Source of the DNA: Candidatus Hermodarchaeota archaeon
GTDB lineage: Archaea; Asgardarchaeota; Lokiarchaeia; Sigyniarchaeales; SOKP01
Length of the DNA stretch: 10,022 bases
Assembly: GCA_048885535.1 (NCBI GenBank)
Contig: JBHLLO010000088.1
Coordinates: forward strand, 1-10,022
Direction of reading: 5' to 3'
How positions within the stretch are numbered: the stretch's first letter is position 1; each line of letters opens with the position of its first letter. The translations under genes were made by a program, and so were the position numbers. Below, piece after piece: positions 1 through 9,863 of the stretch. The notes below the pieces were generated by a model. It had not been told where the DNA came from, did not search any database, and was given only the letters and a program-made list of their open reading frames with translations.

Positions 1-413
1 TCAAAAGCTTCGATGGCTAATTCAATAATTTCTTGAAATGCCATGGCATCTTGAAGGTTACCTTCTACAGTTATGTCTCCAGCCATATAAGCGCTTGTTG
101 CGTCAACTTCTCCGAAGAGTAGGCCTAATGCAACTTCTTTATTAGCAGAAAAGGTAAAAGAAGGATTATCTACTTCTCCTTCTCCATACTCGAGTATTCC
201 GTCATGGGCTTTCATCCAAGCTTTCGTGTCAGCATCAGTAACAATCATTTGGACGGTAATGTCCATATCTTCTAATTCTTCTTTCAAATCTTCATTCTCT
301 TCTGCAATTTGCTTGAAGAGTTCATACATTTTCAAAGCAAAGCTTATATCAGTCGCAGCAGCTCCTGCGTCTAATTTTTCCTTAACTTCATCTATTAATG
401 CTTGATCGACCAT
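1..413 (-). CDS. SCP2 sterol/lipid-binding domain protein (3' end truncated by window edge)
   Basis: Not in the ORF track; translated by hand from ATG at 413: MVDQALIDEVKEKLDAGAAATDISFALKMYELFKQIAEENEDLKEELEDMDITVQMIVTDADTKAWMKAHDGILEYGEGEVDNPSFTFSANKEVALGLLFGEVDATSAYMAGDITVEGNLQDAMAFQEIIELAIEAF..., open to base 1. GEVDATSAYMAGDITVEGNL is the typical SCP2 C-terminal signature. AGGTTGA SD-like site upstream. Confidence 0.88.
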   Translation of the reverse strand, partial: MVDQALIDEVKEKLDAGAAATDISFALKMYELFKQIAEENEDLKEELEDMDITVQMIVTDADTKAWMKAHDGILEYGEGEVDNPSFTFSANKEVALGLLFGEVDATSAYMAGDITVEGNLQDAMAFQEIIELAIEAF

Positions 414-632
414 TTTGGTTTTTCAACCTTTTTTTATTTTTTAACCCTTTAAATCTAAAATTTTATATTTTGAATTTTTTTAAAATTGTGATTTAGATAA
501 TTCTTTTTGATTTAAAAAACTTTGAACTTTTTAACGAAGTATTAGCAAAAAGTTTTTATAGATACTTAAAATATTTTTGATTTTTAAAAACTTAGTATAT
601 TAATATAATCAAAAATGGCGCCCACAGCGGGA

Positions 633-662
633 TTTTCTTCATATGTGGAAAACACACATTAC
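633..662 (-). other. 30-nt tRNA intron in T-loop (about position 59/60)
   Basis: GTAATGTGTGTTTTCCACATATGAAGAAAA interrupts TTCAAA^T. Internal hairpin ATGTG/CACAT; exon TTCA can pair with intron TGAA. The boundary can slide between 56/57 and 59/60 because of the A runs. Confidence 0.85.
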
Positions 663-708
663 TTTGAACCCGCGTCGCAGGAGTGACAGTCCCGAATGCT
701 GAACCGAG

Positions 709-738
709 TTTTGCGCTTCTTTTAAATAAAGATAAACT
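709..738 (-). other. ~30-32-nt tRNA intron in D-loop (about position 15/16)
   Basis: AGTTTATCTTTATTTAAAAGAAGCGCAAAA(CT) lies between G15 and the (CT)CGG containing G18G19. Helices GAGTTT/AAACTC and TCTTT/AAAGA are possible; exon GTGT can pair with intron GCGC. The 3' boundary is uncertain by about 2 nt. Confidence 0.8.
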
Positions 739-954
739 CTACACTATGTGGGCTTAATTTATAGTTTTATATCAGAAAAAATAAATAAAAGTATAAAAAT
801 TTTATTCTCACATTTCATAGCTCTCTTTTTTCTCTTTAAAATTATGAAGAATCTACACTTTTAGATCTTAATAAATAGGGATAAAAAACAAATAAATACG
901 AGGAAAAAGATAATCATTTATAGGTATAAGAATTTTAGATTTTGTAATAGAATT

Positions 955-1389
955 ATGGCTGCTAATGATCCTATTAATTCGTTATTAGAAGTTTTGGAAA
1001 AGGATAAAAAGCAGTTTGTGAAAGTTTTAGATAAAATCATCAGAATAGGAGTAAAAGCTTTTAATTCCGCAGAAGAGCTCAAAGAAGAACTTGTAGGATT
1101 TGATGATATTTATCAAACTTATATTAAAGATGTAGATTTTAGCTATTGGTTAAAAATAGCAAACGGAAAAATGGATTATCAAAAAGGAGATAATCCAGAT
1201 GCTCTTTTTAGGATGAATTACACCTCAGAGATGGTAATTAAGATTTTAAAGGGGGAAATTAGCGGTACGGATGCCTTTATGAGAGGAAAGCTTATTGTCG
1301 AAGGCGATCTAACTCAAGGTTTAAGATATGTAAAACTTTTTCGCATGTTTTTTAAATATATCCAAAAAAAGAATCACTCTGCTAATTGA
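955..1389 (+). CDS. SCP2 sterol/lipid-binding domain protein
   Basis: YWLKIANGKMDYQKGDNPDA...GEISGTDAFMRGKLIVEGDL SCP2 motif; aligns by eye with the flanking paralogs. TTTATA at 917-922 upstream. Confidence 0.88.
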   Translation: MAANDPINSLLEVLEKDKKQFVKVLDKIIRIGVKAFNSAEELKEELVGFDDIYQTYIKDVDFSYWLKIANGKMDYQKGDNPDALFRMNYTSEMVIKILKGEISGTDAFMRGKLIVEGDLTQGLRYVKLFRMFFKYIQKKNHSAN

Positions 1390-1497: not shown

Positions 1498-1938
1498 ATG
1501 ACAACGGATTCTAAAGTACTCCATTCAATGTTAAATGCGTTACAATTAACCGATGATGCCTTCAAGACTAATATTGATAAATTAATGAGCGTGGGAGTAA
1601 AGATTGCTAACAAATCAAAAGACTTTCAAGACGAATTAAGATTGTTTGGAGACATGACCTTCCATCTTTATCTGAAAGACATCGATTTTAATATTTGGAT
1701 TACTAGCTTAGATGGAATTTTAACATATAATACTAGTTTCTATGAACCTGTAACTAAAAAAAGAAGGACCATTCATTTTATTCTCATGAAGGAGACATTG
1801 AAACGTATATTTACTAAAGAGATGGATGCCGCAGAAGCTTATATGAAGGGTTTTATTGAATTTGATGGAAGTTTCTCTGATGCTATGATAGCAAAAAACC
1901 TAATAAAAATATATTCTAATTGCTTGGAACATTTATGA
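1498..1938 (+). CDS. SCP2 sterol/lipid-binding domain protein (divergent paralog)
   Basis: KDIDFNIWITSLDGILTY and KEMDAAEAYMKGFIEFDGSFSDA are collinear with 955..1389 (KDVDFSYWLKIANGKMDY and GEISGTDAFMRGKLIVEGDLTQG). Confidence 0.8.
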   Translation: MTTDSKVLHSMLNALQLTDDAFKTNIDKLMSVGVKIANKSKDFQDELRLFGDMTFHLYLKDIDFNIWITSLDGILTYNTSFYEPVTKKRRTIHFILMKETLKRIFTKEMDAAEAYMKGFIEFDGSFSDAMIAKNLIKIYSNCLEHL

Positions 1939-2013: not shown

Positions 2014-2117
2014 GGGCCTATAATCTAGTCTGGATTTGATTTCCTATTGATGAAATTAACAGAAAGGGTGCCCGGCTTCGGACTGGGATGTCGCAGGTTC
2101 GAATCCTGCTAGGCCCG
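2014..2117 (+). tRNA. tRNA-Arg(UCG) with D-loop intron; CCA not encoded
   Basis: GGGCCTA-TA-ATCT-AGTCTGGA[intron ~2035-2064]A-GGGT-G-CCCGG-CT-TCG-GA-CTGGG-ATGTC-GCAGG-TTCGAAT-CCTGC-TAGGCCC-G. Perfect acceptor and T stems, A20 Arg identity element, G37; followed by CTTTT. Confidence 0.92.
2035..2064 (+). other. ~29-31-nt tRNA intron in D-loop (about position 20/21)
   Basis: 4-bp helix TCTG(2029-2032)/CAGA(2060-2063), 3-nt bulge GAT(2033-2035), then an 8-bp intron helix TTGATTTC(2036-2043)/GAAATTAA(2052-2059). This is a relaxed bulge-helix-bulge/loop motif. Confidence 0.85.
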
Positions 2118-4270: not shown

Positions 4271-5239
4271 TTATGGAGGATATCTTAATTCATAAATACT
4301 TTTTCCTCCTTTTAAAGGTCCCTTTATATAAGACTCAATCACTTTTGGATCTCTCTGTGTAATCCCCTCTATTGGTGGTAATGTTCCTGGAGGAAAAGTT
4401 TTTAAAATATCGTTAACCAACGTTTCTAGATAATCTAGAAAAGCTTCTATTCCAGGTTTCCCTTTTTCAAAGCTAGCTTTGCTCGGGCATCCTACATGCC
4501 CTTCAGGATACGCTGCAACCTCAATTGGTCCGAACCCTACCTGTCCATACCATCGAATTGGTTTTTGGTAAATGTTTCCAGCTTTATCAACGTGTCCTTC
4601 GGGTATCCATCCGATAACTTTATTATCCTCACAACTATCTATTTCCTTAACCATTTCAGGGAATAAAGTCATTGAAAAAGATGTCTCAGCCTCATCTGCA
4701 TGAATAAATGGAGTTTCAAAAGGACCTCCATGTTCTCGATCCTTGCAATATTCGGGAATAGCATGATACCAATTTACATTACAAATAAGGGCTGGTAATT
4801 GATAATTTTTTGCCCATTCATGAATTGCACTAGGAATAACATACTCTTGACCATGACCATTAAGCAATATCATTTTCCTAAATCCCATGTTCCAGCAACC
4901 AGCAATTACTGATCTTAAGAGCCCTTTAAATATTTCTTCTGGTACAATTATCGTACCTGGCATGCCCATATGATGATATGGATGAGATCCATACCAAATA
5001 GGTTGAGCGACAGTACATCCCGTTTTTTGAGCAACTAATTCAGCCATTCTGGTTACTAAAAAGGTATCTTCACCAATACATGCAGCAGGTCCGTGATTTT
5101 CAGTAGATCCTACAGGAATAATAATCAAGTCATTTTTTTCAATACGTTCCCTAATTTCAACTATGTTCATATTTTGAAGGTATATTCCATCAGCAAGATC
5201 TAAATGTCCGCCTTTAGGGGGTAAATTCCATTTTCCCAA
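4271..5239 (-). CDS. iolN: 3-dehydro-scyllo-inosose (diketo-inositol) hydrolase, creatininase family
   Basis: Creatininase motifs PVGSTENHG, GEDT, NGHG, HADEAETS; long segments match my recollection of Thermotoga maritima TM0413 (GEDTFLVTRMAE, HPYHHxGMPGT, ETPFIHADE, GPIEVxAYPEG). TTG start with GGGTGA SD 6 nt upstream. Confidence 0.9.
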   Translation of the reverse strand: MGKWNLPPKGGHLDLADGIYLQNMNIVEIRERIEKNDLIIIPVGSTENHGPAACIGEDTFLVTRMAELVAQKTGCTVAQPIWYGSHPYHHMGMPGTIIVPEEIFKGLLRSVIAGCWNMGFRKMILLNGHGQEYVIPSAIHEWAKNYQLPALICNVNWYHAIPEYCKDREHGGPFETPFIHADEAETSFSMTLFPEMVKEIDSCEDNKVIGWIPEGHVDKAGNIYQKPIRWYGQVGFGPIEVAAYPEGHVGCPSKASFEKGKPGIEAFLDYLETLVNDILKTFPPGTLPPIEGITQRDPKVIESYIKGPLKGGKSIYELRYPP

Positions 5240-5332
5240 TATTTTTCACCCTTAAAATTAATTTTGTATTAATAAATCTAATTCTGTCTCTCTGTTAAAC
5301 TTTTTAATTGAGGCAAATAATAAAATAATTGT

Positions 5333-6145
5333 ATGTTACTCAGTATAGTTACTGGGTTGAATGAATCCAAGAGTTCTAATGAAGTAGTTATTAAGAAAAT
5401 TACCGATTTATGTGCACTATTAAAACCACTCAGATATAATGGGATCGAATTAAGCCTTTTAGAACCTGAGAAGATTAATGTTACAGACCTATTAGAAGTT
5501 GTTCAATCTTATCAAATTAAAATTCCAGCCTTAGGAACTGGAAGTACTTTTTTAAGGTTTGGTTATTCTTTTGGTGATATCGAGGAATCGATCAGAAAAA
5601 AGGCAATTGAGAGAATGAAGAATTATATTGAATTTGCTCGTGAAACAGAATCAAAAGTCATTATAGGGTTGATAAGAGGACGTTATAGGTTTAATAACAA
5701 CCCCAAAAAAGAAAGATTGAATATAATATCCTCTTTAAAAGAATGCTGTTGGATTGCCCAAAATAATGAAGTTGAACTTCTTTTTGAACCAATAAATCAA
5801 TTTGAGATCGATTCATTCAATACAATCGCTCAATCTTTAGAATTGTTAAAGGAAATTCGTTCAGATAACCTAAAATTACTAATTGATTCTTTTCATATTT
5901 ACTTAGAGGAGGAGCCTGGTTTTATATGGGAGGATTTAAAGGAGGTCGCTCCTCTTGTTGGTCATCTTCATCTAGCAGATACAAATAGGAGAGCCCCTGG
6001 CAGTGGACATTTTGATTTTAAAACATTCTTGGGAATTTTTAAAACAAGTGGATATGATGGTTTTGCTTCAATTGAAACAATAATGAAACCTTCTTTTGAA
6101 GAGGTTGCCAGAAATTCATCAGAATATTTAAGGTTGATTTTGTAG
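5333..6145 (+). CDS. iolO: 5-keto-L-gluconate epimerase-like, xylose-isomerase-like TIM barrel
   Basis: Metal/catalytic motifs EPINQFE, DSFH, HLADTNRRAPGSGHFDF, SIE; ALGTG, IRKKAIER and VIIGLIRGR resemble recalled T. maritima TM0416; located between iolN and iolM. Confidence 0.8.
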   Translation: MLLSIVTGLNESKSSNEVVIKKITDLCALLKPLRYNGIELSLLEPEKINVTDLLEVVQSYQIKIPALGTGSTFLRFGYSFGDIEESIRKKAIERMKNYIEFARETESKVIIGLIRGRYRFNNNPKKERLNIISSLKECCWIAQNNEVELLFEPINQFEIDSFNTIAQSLELLKEIRSDNLKLLIDSFHIYLEEEPGFIWEDLKEVAPLVGHLHLADTNRRAPGSGHFDFKTFLGIFKTSGYDGFASIETIMKPSFEEVARNSSEYLRLIL

Positions 6146-6219
6146 GATTAATATAGAAAACTGGATTTCAATTAGAATTATATATTATGTTAAATTTGGA
6201 TGGAAATGTAAATCGCATT

Positions 6220-7398
6220 TTAGTTAATTTTCACAGAAATTTTACAATTTTCTCGATCTGTTTGCAAAAGTGTTAGGTTTTCTGGTACTAGTTCTAATGA
6301 TATCTCTTTAGTAATCATTGGAGTTAAATCCATTCCAGTAGCCATGGATGAAATTACATTAGGAAACGTGCCATGACCAGAATGACCTTGAGCTCCAACA
6401 ATTCGAGCTCGTTTAACTTGGATATATTCTCCACATATCGGCATTTTTTGTTCCGCTCGTGCTACAATTACGACGGTACTATTAACAGCTTTACATTCCC
6501 AAATTGCATTTTGAATGTCGTCAGTAACTATATGAGGTAATCCAGTCGCTTCAAGGTACAATGCTGCGCCCTCGTTATCAGTATATTCTTTTACTTTTTC
6601 TACAAAATTTTCTTCTTGAGGATTAATAATATAATCTGCACCTACTTTTTTTGCTAATCTAGCTCTTGTTTTATTGGGTTCAGATAAAATACAAATTGCA
6701 GCTCCAGCTGTTTTTAAAATTTTAGTAGCTGCTATTCCAATTGGACCTCCTCCTAAAATAATTGCATTTTCACCAGGCTTTATTCCTCCACCTCTTTCAA
6801 TCAAAGCATTATAGGCAACAGACGTGGGTTCTACTAAACTTCCTGGTTTACATACATCATTGTAATTTTTTTCTAACTTTTTTAGACTCCAACATAGTTT
6901 CGATGGAACAGCGATATATTCTGCAAATGCACCATCAATTGAGAATCCAATTTCTTGTAATCTTTCGCAATGGTTTGGATATCCATCACAACAAGGTTTG
7001 CATTCACCGCACCAAACCATCTCTTCAACTGTGACCGGTTCTCCCTTTTCATATAGCTTACCAGTTCTTTTGTTAATAGCATTACTCCCTACTTCAACTA
7101 TTTCACCAGAGAATTCATGCCCAAGGGTTACAGGAAAAGCTGTTAATCCAGGGTAGTATATGTAACCATCATCAGAAGTTTGATTCATATGAACATCAGA
7201 ACCACATATTCCACATCTTTTTACTTTAATGAGTACTTCATTAGCCCTGATTTTGGGAATTGATTTTTCAACTAGCTTGACTTTTGGATATCTCCATACT
7301 TGTGAGCCTAAATAAGTCAATTTTCCTCTAATATCTTTGGATCCAAGCTTAAAATGTGGTTTTGGATCCCATTCTGCTATTAATTCAACTGATTTCAT
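6220..7398 (-). CDS. iolM: scyllo-inosose 3-dehydrogenase (Zn-dependent MDR)
   Basis: Diagnostic N-terminus WDPKPHFKLGSKDIRGKLTYLGSQVWRYP and GYIYYPGLTAFPVTLGHEFSG as recalled for T. maritima TM0412; CGICGSD, structural Zn CxxCxxCx7C, GGGPIG, GAQGHSGHGTFP. GAGG SD. Confidence 0.92.
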   Translation of the reverse strand: MKSVELIAEWDPKPHFKLGSKDIRGKLTYLGSQVWRYPKVKLVEKSIPKIRANEVLIKVKRCGICGSDVHMNQTSDDGYIYYPGLTAFPVTLGHEFSGEIVEVGSNAINKRTGKLYEKGEPVTVEEMVWCGECKPCCDGYPNHCERLQEIGFSIDGAFAEYIAVPSKLCWSLKKLEKNYNDVCKPGSLVEPTSVAYNALIERGGGIKPGENAIILGGGPIGIAATKILKTAGAAICILSEPNKTRARLAKKVGADYIINPQEENFVEKVKEYTDNEGAALYLEATGLPHIVTDDIQNAIWECKAVNSTVVIVARAEQKMPICGEYIQVKRARIVGAQGHSGHGTFPNVISSMATGMDLTPMITKEISLELVPENLTLLQTDRENCKISVKIN

Positions 7399-7466
7399 TT
7401 TCCTCTCTTAAAATTTGTATACTCTTAATTTAATTTATGTTTCAAAATAAAGATTAATCTTATTCC

Positions 7467-7485
7467 AAAAAAAAATAAAAAAAAA
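7467..7485 (-). terminator. Archaeal oligo-T terminator after the MFS gene
   Basis: Minus strand reads T9-A-T9 immediately after the MFS stop codon. Confidence 0.5.
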
Positions 7486-7486
7486 T

Positions 7487-8692
7487 TTAATCTGATTTTT
7501 CTTTTAGTAATAGAAGGATAATTAATGTAACTAAGAGAAAGATCGATTCTAACAGTAAGGTTGGAAAATAATCTCCCATTGGAGTAGTAAATCCTTCAAA
7601 AAAGAGGATAAATATTATTCCTCCAATTTGACCTATCATCATTAACATACCATTCGAAGTGGCCTCTGGGACGGGTTTTGTTAAATCTACTGCATATTCT
7701 AAAGCTACTGGTCCAGCAGATAAAATTCCAAAGCCTAAAAGAAAACTAAATATGTATAATATAGTTGGATCAGAGAAAAATGTTATCAAGAATAATGATA
7801 CAGTTGCCACTAGAACTGAAATAATGAGTAACATTTTAGGTTTTTTATATTTATCAGATAAAACTGACATTATAACACAACCTATTATTCCACCGACAAG
7901 CATTAAACCTCCAAGAATTCCAGCATCGACAGCAGTAAATCCTCTTGGAATTACAATTAATTCTATGTATGATGTGATAAAGTTAAAAATTCCTAGGCCA
8001 AAGAAAAATGTAATAAACAGAATTATGAAATATCTATTTATAAATAACTTTTTCAAACCTTCACCCATTAAAACTCTTTCTTTAGAAATTTCAGTAGATG
8101 GGGGTGTAGGAGGTTTATTTTTCACGAGAATAATGAAAAGCATACCAGAAATCAAAGCTAATATTCCATATATCAATAAAACCATTTCAAGGTTAAGTGC
8201 TTCAAAGATAAATGGAGTTATTAATACTCCTAACATTATACCGATAAATTGAGAAATTAGTGACAGTCCTGTTGCTGATGTTCTTTCTGATTCAGGAAAC
8301 CAATTTGCTGAAAGCCTAGTTATACTATTTAAAACAAAAGGTTGACCAATTGCAATTCCTATCTGAAAGAGTAAAAGTAACATGTAGTTATTTCCAGCAA
8401 AAAATCTTAAAAACCCGAAAATTCCAGCTAGCAGTGCTCCAACACCTGCTCCAATTCTAAAATCATATTTATCAATTAACCATGACGCTAAGAATGTAAC
8501 AGGAATATATGCAATCATGAAAACTAAAGACAACAAGAGTATATCTAATTCTGCTACACCATAATAAAATGCGGCTTCAACTGTTATTGAAGCGTAAGTT
8601 ATCCATAAGATTTGTAATGTTATATTAGTAAACATAAATAATATTAGTACTAACCACCGATATCCATACAATTGTATATTTTCTTCACTCAT
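7487..8692 (-). CDS. MFS transporter, FLVCR/SLC49-like
   Basis: About 12 hydrophobic segments; YGYRWLVL...N...ILWITYASI N-terminus, WLIDKYDFR and VLSDKYKK motif A, WFPESERTSATG, PVPEATSNG. ATG at 8692 (MSEENIQ) is preferred to the TTG at 8737 because a TATA-like site lies at 8744-8751. Confidence 0.88.
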   Translation of the reverse strand: MSEENIQLYGYRWLVLILFMFTNITLQILWITYASITVEAAFYYGVAELDILLLSLVFMIAYIPVTFLASWLIDKYDFRIGAGVGALLAGIFGFLRFFAGNNYMLLLLFQIGIAIGQPFVLNSITRLSANWFPESERTSATGLSLISQFIGIMLGVLITPFIFEALNLEMVLLIYGILALISGMLFIILVKNKPPTPPSTEISKERVLMGEGLKKLFINRYFIILFITFFFGLGIFNFITSYIELIVIPRGFTAVDAGILGGLMLVGGIIGCVIMSVLSDKYKKPKMLLIISVLVATVSLFLITFFSDPTILYIFSFLLGFGILSAGPVALEYAVDLTKPVPEATSNGMLMMIGQIGGIIFILFFEGFTTPMGDYFPTLLLESIFLLVTLIILLLLKEKSD

Positions 8693-8813
8693 AATATCAT
8701 CAATTTTTTTAAGATATGATAATTGATTAATTATCAATTCAAGTTAAACTTAATAAAATTTAAATCTTCAATTTTTAATTTAATAATAATGAATATAAAT
8801 AAAGGTGATTAAA

Positions 8814-9863
8814 ATGGATAAGATGCTAGCGGCTGTCTTTCATAAAAATGCGAATAATGGAGGTTCTGTAAAATTAGAAGAAGTAAAAATACCAGAAATA
8901 TCTAAGAGTAACCAGATACTGATTAAAATAGGATCTTGTGGAATTTGCGGGACTGATCTGAAGATAATTGAAGGAGGGCATCCTGCTAATGATAATATTA
9001 TTTTAGGTCATGAATTTACAGGCATAATAAAAGAATTGGGGGATGGCATTAAGGATTTGAAAGTTGGGGATAAAGTAGTTGTAGATCCCAATGAAAAATG
9101 TGGCTATTGTATTAATTGTCGAAGGGGATATTCAAATTTATGTGAATATCTGGCATTAGGTACTACTTTTGGGATATTTCAGAATGGTGGTTTTGCTAAA
9201 TATTCAGTTATTCCAAGAGATGCTGTGTTTAAACTTCCAAAAGACATCGACTTGACAGCAGCAGCATTAGTGGAGCCTTTATCGTGTGCCATACATTGTC
9301 ATAATATCGCCGATATCAGAGAATCTGATAATGTAGTTATAATTGGAGCTGGTCCAATGGGTTTAATCATAGAATCTGTTATTAGAATACATCCAATTAA
9401 AAATTTGATTACTATTGAAATAGATGATTGGCGTAGAGAAAAAGCATTAGATCTTGGTGCTGACTACGTAATAAATCCTCATTCTCAAAATGTGAAAGAT
9501 GAAGTTATAAAGATTACTGAATCACATGGAGCAGATGTGATTATTGATGCTGTTGGTCTTTCCGAGACTTTTGAGATGGCGCTAGATTTTTGGGCTCCAG
9601 GTGCTAGATTAGTATGCTTTGGACAAGATTATCGTGCCGAAGCAAAGATTAAACCTAATGATATAGTAAGATATCAAAGAAAAATTATGGGATCCTATAT
9701 AGGAGATGCTGAAGATTTTTTAGACGCTATCGAATTAATTGCTAACAACGTTGTTGAAGTAAAGAAATTAATTACTAAAACAATCCCAATAGAAGAATTG
9801 GTTTCTACTGGTTTTCATCTTATGAAAGAGCGTAAATGTGTTAAAATAATTGTTAAACCTTGA
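8814..9863 (+). CDS. Zn-dependent NAD(H) dehydrogenase, sorbitol/threonine-DH-like MDR
   Basis: CGICGTD, GHE, CGYCINCRRGYSNLC, VEPLSC (Glu third ligand), GAGPMG followed by acidic IEID. The ORF-track GTG at 8805 lies within an AGGTGA SD, so ATG 8814 is the more likely start. Confidence 0.88.
   Translation: MDKMLAAVFHKNANNGGSVKLEEVKIPEISKSNQILIKIGSCGICGTDLKIIEGGHPANDNIILGHEFTGIIKELGDGIKDLKVGDKVVVDPNEKCGYCINCRRGYSNLCEYLALGTTFGIFQNGGFAKYSVIPRDAVFKLPKDIDLTAAALVEPLSCAIHCHNIADIRESDNVVIIGAGPMGLIIESVIRIHPIKNLITIEIDDWRREKALDLGADYVINPHSQNVKDEVIKITESHGADVIIDAVGLSETFEMALDFWAPGARLVCFGQDYRAEAKIKPNDIVRYQRKIMGSYIGDAEDFLDAIELIANNVVEVKKLITKTIPIEELVSTGFHLMKERKCVKIIVKP

Follow-up and report, generated by a model that had tools for sequence, protein, structure and literature searches.

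Transfer RNA (tRNA) genes with several introns at non-canonical sites are a classic feature of Thermoproteales (PMC4090602, PMC4033280), and the Pyrobaculum islandicum tRNA-Pro(UGG) gene carries introns at 25/26, 37/38 and 56/57 (PMC4090602). The archaeal splicing endonuclease targets a helix of 4 bp that has 3-nt bulges at both sides, on opposite strands, a motif termed bulge-helix-bulge (BHB), and at 37/38 the first two anticodon nucleotides lie inside the central helix (PMC4090602); we derive from this that each bulge is 3' of its central strand and is cut after its second nucleotide. In Aeropyrum pernix, the (alpha-beta)2 EndA suffices in vitro to cleave the D-loop intron of pre-tRNA-Thr2(UGU), and neither a guide RNA nor another factor is required; this cleavage is slower than at 37/38, and a Crenarchaea-specific loop is required for such sites (PMC3241643). 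The subject here is a tRNA-Asp(GUC) gene at positions 753..616 (minus strand) of contig JBHLLO010000088.1 from Candidatus Hermodarchaeota archaeon, within a stretch of 10,022 nt that was analysed as a whole and is called the window below; two 30-nt inserts interrupt the D-loop and the T-loop of this gene.

As in Thermoproteales, the window gene has several BHB or relaxed-BHB introns at D-arm and T-arm sites, and both 59/60 and 56/57 are listed sites (PMC4090602). Unlike the Thermoproteales case, it has no 37/38 intron, and its D-loop site, 15/16, does not appear in the list of PMC4090602, which is not exhaustive. Its host is an AT-rich Asgard archaeon and not a hyperthermophilic crenarchaeon, and its D-loop intron has a relaxed motif, whereas that of A. 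pernix has a canonical BHB motif (PMC3241643).

Among Asgard archaea, introns are found in 92-95% of the tRNA genes of Atabeyarchaeia and Freyarchaeia (PMC11291895). According to a preprint (bioRxiv 10.64898/2026.10.13.758758), Asgard tRNA introns were gained repeatedly, T-arm inserts lie most often at canonical BHB motifs and D-arm inserts less often so, and D-arm inserts are common and often missed; how introns enter and leave archaeal tRNA genes is left open there. Heavily interrupted Asgard tRNA genes are already published, and the window gene fits that picture closely, with short non-canonical introns, of which there are often several per gene, and with a D-arm intron of the kind that annotators miss. 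The published cases centre on Jordiarchaeia and Atabeyarchaeia, while the window gene is of Loki type, and its inserts of 30 nt compare with published Asgard medians of 22-23 nt (bioRxiv 10.64898/2026.10.13.758758). Unlike the published Asgard surveys, the present analysis follows a single syntenic tRNA-Asp locus across 54 species. No word that starts with Lokiarch or Promethearch occurs in the main text of the preprint, whose supplementary tables may list the gene type; a literature search gave no description of this tRNA-Asp architecture in Lokiarchaeia, and the bioRxiv supplements, which lay outside that search, may hold one.

The tRNA-Asp(GUC) gene and its two inserts

With a probability of about 0.88, the stretch 753..616 is a functional tRNA-Asp(GUC) gene of a Lokiarchaeia-type archaeon (the phylum named Promethearchaeota at NCBI) with two 30-nt protein-spliced archaeal introns. 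It spans 138 nt on the minus strand and is built by three colinear exons and two introns of 30 nt, with an encoded CCA. Its parts, which were delimited mainly by comparison with the compact 75-nt gene of a related locus (L020), are the following, and the pre positions used below run along the same 138-nt stretch, such that pre position i is window coordinate 754 - i.

616..753, minus strand: whole tRNA-Asp(GUC) gene, from the sequence, ARAGORN after insert removal and alignment to the compact orthologue L020
739..753, minus strand: exon 1, tRNA positions 1-15 (7-nt acceptor 5' strand, U8, A9, D-stem 5' strand GTGT, A14, G15), boundary from the L020 alignment
709..738, minus strand: intron 1, 30 nt, D-loop, 15/16, from the alignment to the compact orthologue and the BHB score
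663..708, minus strand: exon 2, positions 16-59 (remaining D-arm, anticodon arm, 4-nt variable loop, T-stem 5' strand, T-loop 54-59, TTCAAA)
685..687, minus strand: anticodon GTC, in an unbroken CTGTCAC loop with no 37/38 intron
633..662, minus strand: intron 2, 30 nt, T-loop, 59/60 by BHB register, from the alignment, the BHB score and covariation in 25 genes
616..632, minus strand: exon 3, position 60 (T), T-stem 3' strand, acceptor 3' strand, G73 (619) and CCA (618..616)

Related genes were collected in one scan of a genome collection, with a 24-nt core from the anticodon loop to the T-stem (within exon 2) as query. It gave 55 loci in 55 different assemblies, with one match per assembly. 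One of these loci (L041) is a bacterial tRNA-Asp, and the other 54 belong to archaeal metagenome-assembled genomes labelled Promethearchaeota or Promethearchaeia, Hod-, Thor- or Odinarchaeota, or 'uncultured archaeon'. The nearest are L031 and L015, which share 89% and 87% of their nucleotides with the window along about 1.7 kb; no locus is identical to the window, so the window's own genome lies outside the scanned collection.

The preliminary description had claimed that the cloverleaf of a tRNA-Asp(GUC) appears only after removal of both inserts and that standard scans may miss the gene, and both statements hold. ARAGORN finds no tRNA in the whole window as it stands, nor in the excised unspliced gene with anticodon-loop intron options and lowered thresholds, and the window has no Rfam match at gathering score. 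The Rfam matches with E<=10 (Afu_254, Yfr21, CbSR9 and SCARNA7, E 6.7-9.9), none of which is a tRNA, lie far under the gathering scores and were dismissed as chance. Removal of a single insert leads to no ARAGORN tRNA call, and removal of both gives tRNA-Asp(gtc), of 76 nt with the boundaries first proposed and of 78 nt with the corrected ones listed above. As a member of the tRNA family (RF00005), of isotype Asp with anticodon GUC, the gene forms its cloverleaf of 7-bp acceptor, D, anticodon and T arms only once both inserts are out; the 54 related Asgard genes and the BHB-type motifs at both inserts agree with this identification. The anticodon loop CTGTCAC is uninterrupted, as had been stated for the absence of an intron at 37/38.

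The exons themselves are those of a well-preserved tRNA. The acceptor 3' strand is perfectly complementary to the acceptor 5' strand, and the core nucleotides U8, A14, G18 G19, U54 U55 C56, A58 and G53-C61, plus G73, are all present; G73, C38 and G10.U25 are what we take to be Asp identity elements. The three exons together have a G+C content of 61.5%, against 24% in the surrounding intergenic region. Compared with the intron-less L020, L028 and L033 genes, the spliced window gene agrees at 75 of 78 positions, and the other three all lie in the D-loop; Rfam scores the compact L020 and L033 genes as tRNA, with 60.1 bits each. Exon 1 has the same sequence in the window gene and in L005, L009, L015 and L031.

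Other kinds of interrupted gene describe the locus poorly. The exons are colinear within 138 nt, unlike those of a split or permuted tRNA gene, and the inserts have 30 nt, whereas the ribozyme core of a group I or group II intron has hundreds of nucleotides; in the window, the group I and II models give no Rfam match at gathering score or at E<=10.

Bulge-helix-bulge motifs at the insert boundaries

The gene, the positions of its inserts, their motifs and the conservation and covariation of these motifs are observed directly. Inserts were placed by aligning each gene to the compact L020 gene with long gaps made cheap and with no motif used. In this alignment, insert 2 has 30 nt and slides over AAA from 56/57 to 59/60 (662..633 if at 59/60). 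The T-loop position of 59/60, given in the preliminary description, lies in that range and is the one picked by the BHB register, and an unbiased scan of all boundary pairs has 59/60 among the best-ranked.

The outer helix of the intron 2 motif is the 5-bp T-stem. Its central helix is formed by 638..635 with T-loop positions 54-56, in which U54-A, U55-A and C56-G pair and A57 stands opposite A, and its bulges are AA/G and AA/T (slash at the cut). The inner helix is a 9-position hairpin of 661..653 with 647..639, with 5 of the first 6 positions paired. Covariation was assessed in 25 genes (23 distinct sequences, ungapped alignment) whose insert has 30 nt and lies in this register, and its support for the motif is strong: the paired fraction of cells is 87.0%, as compared with 73.3% after shuffling of the columns, and 0/500 shuffles reach either this pairing or the covariation score. 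Double-sided changes occur at all nine of the nine inner-helix pairs. The four central pairs form in 23/23, 23/23, 21/23 and 12/23 genes, with all four together in 12 of the 23 distinct genes, and sliding the 3' partners cuts the pairing to 26-62%. RNAalifold alone recovers the T-stem and the inner hairpin on this set and does not recover the short central helix. In L006 and L050, where the insert can only lie at least 1 nt further 5', a 4/4 central helix is seen by eye at 58/59, shifted by 1 nt. The window intron 2 is identical to the L015 intron over 29 of 29 nt.

A 6-4-6 arrangement of intron 2 in the subfamily of the window gene, in which TGAA (pre 113-116) pairs with T-loop positions 54-57, was also considered; it was rejected because a change in L013 breaks it and is neutral in the 3-4-3 model, and because pairing is down to 45.9% at a partner slide of -3.

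Insert 1 falls at 15/16 (738..709), with 30 nt and zero sliding ambiguity, which leaves a D-loop of 11 nt, as in all compact genes, and not of 9 nt. The 3' part of intron 1 (714..711) pairs with D-stem positions 11-13 in a central helix of U11-A, G12-C and U13.G, with G10 opposite A, so this helix joins the D-stem 5' strand to a segment of the intron that mimics the D-stem 3' strand. The bulges are AG/A and AA/C. The inner helix has 4 bp in pre numbering, G17-C39, U18.G38, U19-A37 and U20-A36 (intron positions 2-5, 737..734, with 718..715), and the BHB-like score is 3/4 for the central helix (H) and 5/6 for the inner one. The outer helix is just A9-U, which makes the motif one of the relaxed HBh' type. 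Across five genes 80% of the cells of the D-loop motif are paired, L005 and L009 have a 4/4 central helix, and two compensatory changes occur, 17:39 from G-C to A-U in L009 and 19:37 from U-A to A-U in L015. The cuts given by 3-4-3 geometry at intron 1 are the boundaries that had been found without the motif. Over 24 nt, intron 1 has 92% identity with its counterparts in L015 and L031, the two loci to whose introns those of the window are closest. An origin of intron 1 as a duplicated D-arm segment was dismissed, since by eye there is no similarity past the 4-nt stem mimic.

Both introns thus have a relaxed BHB motif (HBh' or hBH), with at least three central pairs, 3-nt bulges and at least one flanking helix. 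Chance was assessed with exact boundaries. Among shuffled introns (20,000 each), 1.0-2.0% reach the observed H and inner scores, and along the precursor, of 85 windows of 30 nt, the two proposed introns alone reach H>=3 with H+inner>=8.

Several observations weigh against two BHB-spliced introns in a functional gene, most of them at the D-loop. Neither motif is a strict hBHBh' with 4/4 central pairs, each having 3/4, with A57.A in intron 2 and G10.A in intron 1. In the five-gene D-loop set, 9/500 shuffles match the paired fraction and 61/500 match the count of double changes. For these five genes, RNAalifold prefers to pair 10-13 with 38-41, in a register that is shifted by 2 nt and has 20/20 cells paired, and in a slide control the shifted register pairs 77.5% of cells against 80.0% in register 0, with no double changes in the shifted one. 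The local fold of intron 1 has -3.5 kcal/mol as a BHB motif and -6.2 kcal/mol when free, and the whole precursor has -31.9 kcal/mol constrained and -42.0 kcal/mol free. Finally, the genome scan covers 55 assemblies, and the window's genome is not among them. The motif support at the D-loop is therefore weaker than at the T-loop and is register-ambiguous; register 0 is favoured because it alone puts cuts of known geometry where the comparison with intron-less genes puts them. The minimum free energy helix of intron 1, in which intron positions 2-5 pair with the intron end and the start of exon 2, would have both cuts fall within an unbroken helix, unlike in any known substrate of EndA, and it was rejected as a splicing motif and kept only as a competing fold.

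These data also bear on the exact end of intron 1. Both introns could be real and intron 1 could end elsewhere, with 32 nt and a 9-nt D-loop, as first described, or with 28 nt, a 13-nt D-loop and the helix of 10-13 with 38-41. This is improbable. ARAGORN accepts the 76-nt product of the 32-nt version, and the shifted register of the 28-nt version is RNAalifold's choice, but the motif-free alignment gives 30 nt unambiguously, the 11-nt D-loop of the compact orthologues and of the genes without a D-loop insert fits 30 nt only, and double changes are found in register 0 only. At the 32-nt boundary 2/4 central pairs form by eye, and a strict BHB is absent there among the best candidates. Of the earlier description of insert 1, the site near 15/16 was borne out, and the 3' end most likely lies 2 nt upstream of where it had been drawn.

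The locus in related Asgard archaea

The small ORFs (open reading frames) that flank the window gene, 3..413 (minus) and 955..1389 (plus), have counterparts beside tRNA-Asp in most loci, with identities of up to 98.5% and 87.6%, respectively, in L015. They belong to three paralogous small ORFs around tRNA-Asp, with 1498..1938 (plus) as the third, which are called SCP2-like from their sequence only, and the three-ORF arrangement is kept beside tRNA-Asp in most of the 54 Asgard loci.

The preliminary description had proposed a comparison of intron presence across relatives, and its outcome in the 54 Asgard loci is given here; two loci, L006 and L012, are cut by contig ends, and their 5' parts were taken from the parsed sequences.

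No insert: 7 of 54 loci
T-loop insert only: 21 of 54 loci
20b/21 insert only: 15 of 54 loci
15/16 and T-loop inserts, the window layout: 4 of 54 loci (L005, L009, L015, L031)
20b/21 and T-loop inserts: 3 of 54 loci
Other sites (8/9, 18/19, 25/26, 27/28): 4 of 54 loci
37/38 insert: 0 of 54 loci

Inserts thus occupy seven distinct sites or site zones, and the T-loop insert is present in 28 of the 54 relatives. That 15/16 is an unusual site, as had been suggested, is supported by its presence in just four relatives, in addition to its absence from the non-exhaustive list of PMC4090602 mentioned above, but it is tempered by the fact that D-arm inserts are common in Asgard tRNA genes (bioRxiv 10.64898/2026.10.13.758758). 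Insert lengths at most sites are 28-32 nt across the 54 loci, with exceptions of 18 nt and 45 nt: the T-loop insert has 30 nt in 26 of 28 cases, the 15/16 insert 29-30 nt, the 20b/21 insert 30 or 32 nt, the 8/9 insert 30 nt and the 25/26 insert 32 nt.

A decaying pseudogene with two insertions, in a cell served by a separate intact tRNA-Asp, is an unlikely explanation and has a very small probability. It would agree with the silence of ARAGORN and Rfam on the gene and with the coverage of the genome scan, given above. Against it, every exon position is intact and the few differences from the compact orthologues fall in the variable D-loop, four other assemblies retain the two-intron layout and the intron helices show compensatory changes, and the promoter-like element and T-run described below are conserved. 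Because each of the 55 assemblies has one core match, none of the relatives has both an interrupted and an intact copy bearing the 24-nt core. Slightly less probable still is that the inserts are retained, giving a mature tRNA with enlarged D- and T-loops. The tRNAscan-SE output does show such stretches as enlarged D-loops in many Asgard genes (bioRxiv 10.64898/2026.10.13.758758), but 30 nt in the T-loop would part positions 54-59 from 60 and abolish the T-loop/D-loop elbow, the BHB-like motifs at the inserts are far above chance, and in close relatives one insert or both are missing from this locus, on otherwise near-identical exons. An assembly artefact or chimera, also unlikely, has next to no probability: the source is probably metagenome-derived, which would allow for one, but homologous inserts at both sites recur in four independent assemblies (those with the window layout) and the T-loop insert recurs in more than half of the relatives. 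A gene that is almost certainly functional and spliced, as predicted from its sequence, is the reading that is retained.

The history of the introns was followed on a tree of the downstream SCP2-like ORF, which is short and unrooted, has 30 rows and was built from matches within the 1-kb flank; L005 and L009 are among the 25 loci, out of 55, that were left out for having no high-scoring segment pair of >=120 aa and 50% identity. On this tree, the window forms a group with L015 and L031 (Shimodaira-Hasegawa-like approximate likelihood ratio test 89), all with the 15/16 and T-loop introns, within a clade of six (98) that also has L042 and L013, with a T-loop intron only, and the intron-less L033. 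This clade therefore carries 0, 1 or 2 introns on near-identical exons. The minimum number of state changes on the ORF tree is 1 for the 15/16 intron, 7 for the T-loop intron and 5 for the 20b/21 intron; as the tree is short and unrooted, gains are not separable from losses in these numbers. A clean presence/absence difference at one locus is seen between the intron-less L033 and the loci L013, L037, L042 and L043, which have the T-loop intron, as their exons and about 70 nt upstream are near-identical. A search for copies of the introns elsewhere in the window and the 55 loci gave only orthologous introns and some short AT-rich stretches that match by chance, and hence no hint of transposition.

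With 0, 1 or 2 introns in close relatives, this one orthologous locus is a handy system for the study of tRNA intron gain and loss. It may be speculated, with rather little likelihood, that the Loki-type tRNA-Asp locus is a time series of ongoing intron turnover, in which the 15/16 precursor swaps partners after splicing as an obligatory folding checkpoint before G15 and A58 modification, and in which introns persist or arise where they imitate a stem partner. The Asgard EndA is the closest prokaryotic relative of the eukaryotic enzyme, and the locus supplies relaxed substrates, an HBh' motif in the D-loop and a T-loop motif with one mismatch, for probing its range.

Expression, detection and neighbouring genes

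Two candidate expression signals frame the window gene:

792..809, minus strand: candidate promoter, an A-rich stretch similar to a B recognition element with a TTTTTATA box, -56..-39 from G1, from upstream sequence comparison
611..615, minus strand: T5 run directly after CCA, likely transcription stop

The TTTTTATA stretch is kept in L015, L031, L013, L033, L037, L042 and L043, and similar boxes are found 40-70 nt upstream in more distant loci. The promoter label follows what we take to be the archaeal TATA consensus.

For transcription, cleavage, ligation and the timing of modification, we infer the following course. Transcription would start from the TATA-type promoter about 40-55 nt upstream and run to the T5 run past the encoded CCA, and the precursor would fold two local, independent relaxed BHB motifs, of which EndA would cut each bulge after its second nucleotide. 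An RtcB-type ligase would join the three exons and RNase P would remove the leader, as these enzymes do in general. Judging from the literature, the endonuclease would be an (alpha-beta)2 EndA; for Asgard archaea the EndA type follows PMC5829648 and bioRxiv 10.64898/2026.10.13.758758, two EndA paralogues are present in 44 of 60 Asgard genomes (bioRxiv 10.64898/2026.10.13.758758), and in vitro, enzymes of this kind need no further factor to cleave relaxed motifs and D-loop introns (PMC6379350, PMC3241643). Each motif is local (pre 9-47 and pre 81-127), and both coexist with the acceptor and anticodon stems in the constrained fold, so the model imposes no order of removal. Since positions 10-13 and 54-57 pair with the introns in the modelled precursor, the D-stem, the T-loop and the elbow would form only after both excisions, and it is reasonable that elbow folding and the modification of G15 and A58 would wait for splicing.

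Without the window gene, the genome would seem to have no tRNA-Asp. Among the 54 relatives, ARAGORN calls tRNA-Asp in nine, which are the seven compact genes and two genes with a T-loop intron called with a wrong span (L025, L034), and Rfam misses L013, which has a T-loop insert only, as well as L015 and L031. As ARAGORN is correct only for the seven compact genes, tRNA counts and completeness estimates of Loki-type genomes are likely too low. Wrong-span or wrong-isotype calls on interrupted Asp genes are L025 982..1058, L034 967..1044 and L053 949..1044, the last being called tRNA-Leu(taa) with 96 nt. Calls of 90-91 nt as 'tRNA-Thr(ggt)' or 'tRNA-Tyr(ata)' overlap interrupted tRNA-Arg genes at L001 1312..1401, L019 658..748 and L030 1089..1179. 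All these odd calls look wrong owing to introns.

The window has a second interrupted gene, a tRNA-Arg(UCG) gene at 2014..2117 (plus strand) with a 29-nt D-loop insert (2036..2064) at 20a/21 and no encoded CCA. ARAGORN and Rfam miss this gene when unspliced, and with the insert removed ARAGORN calls tRNA-Arg(tcg), of 75 nt. Among 61 windows, the one at its boundary ranks first in BHB-like score, with 3/4 central pairs and the first 7 inner positions paired. The insert is at the same site in L002, L004, L009 and L055, while other relatives have theirs in the variable region, in the T-arm or elsewhere in the D-loop. The tRNA-Arg gene behaves like the tRNA-Asp gene and supports its reading as a spliced tRNA gene.

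The rest of the window, from 4271 to 9863, has ordinary-looking metabolic ORFs and a multi-pass membrane protein, with no evident link to tRNA splicing as judged from the translations only. These translations resemble creatininase-like, TIM-barrel isomerase-like and two zinc alcohol-dehydrogenase-like proteins.

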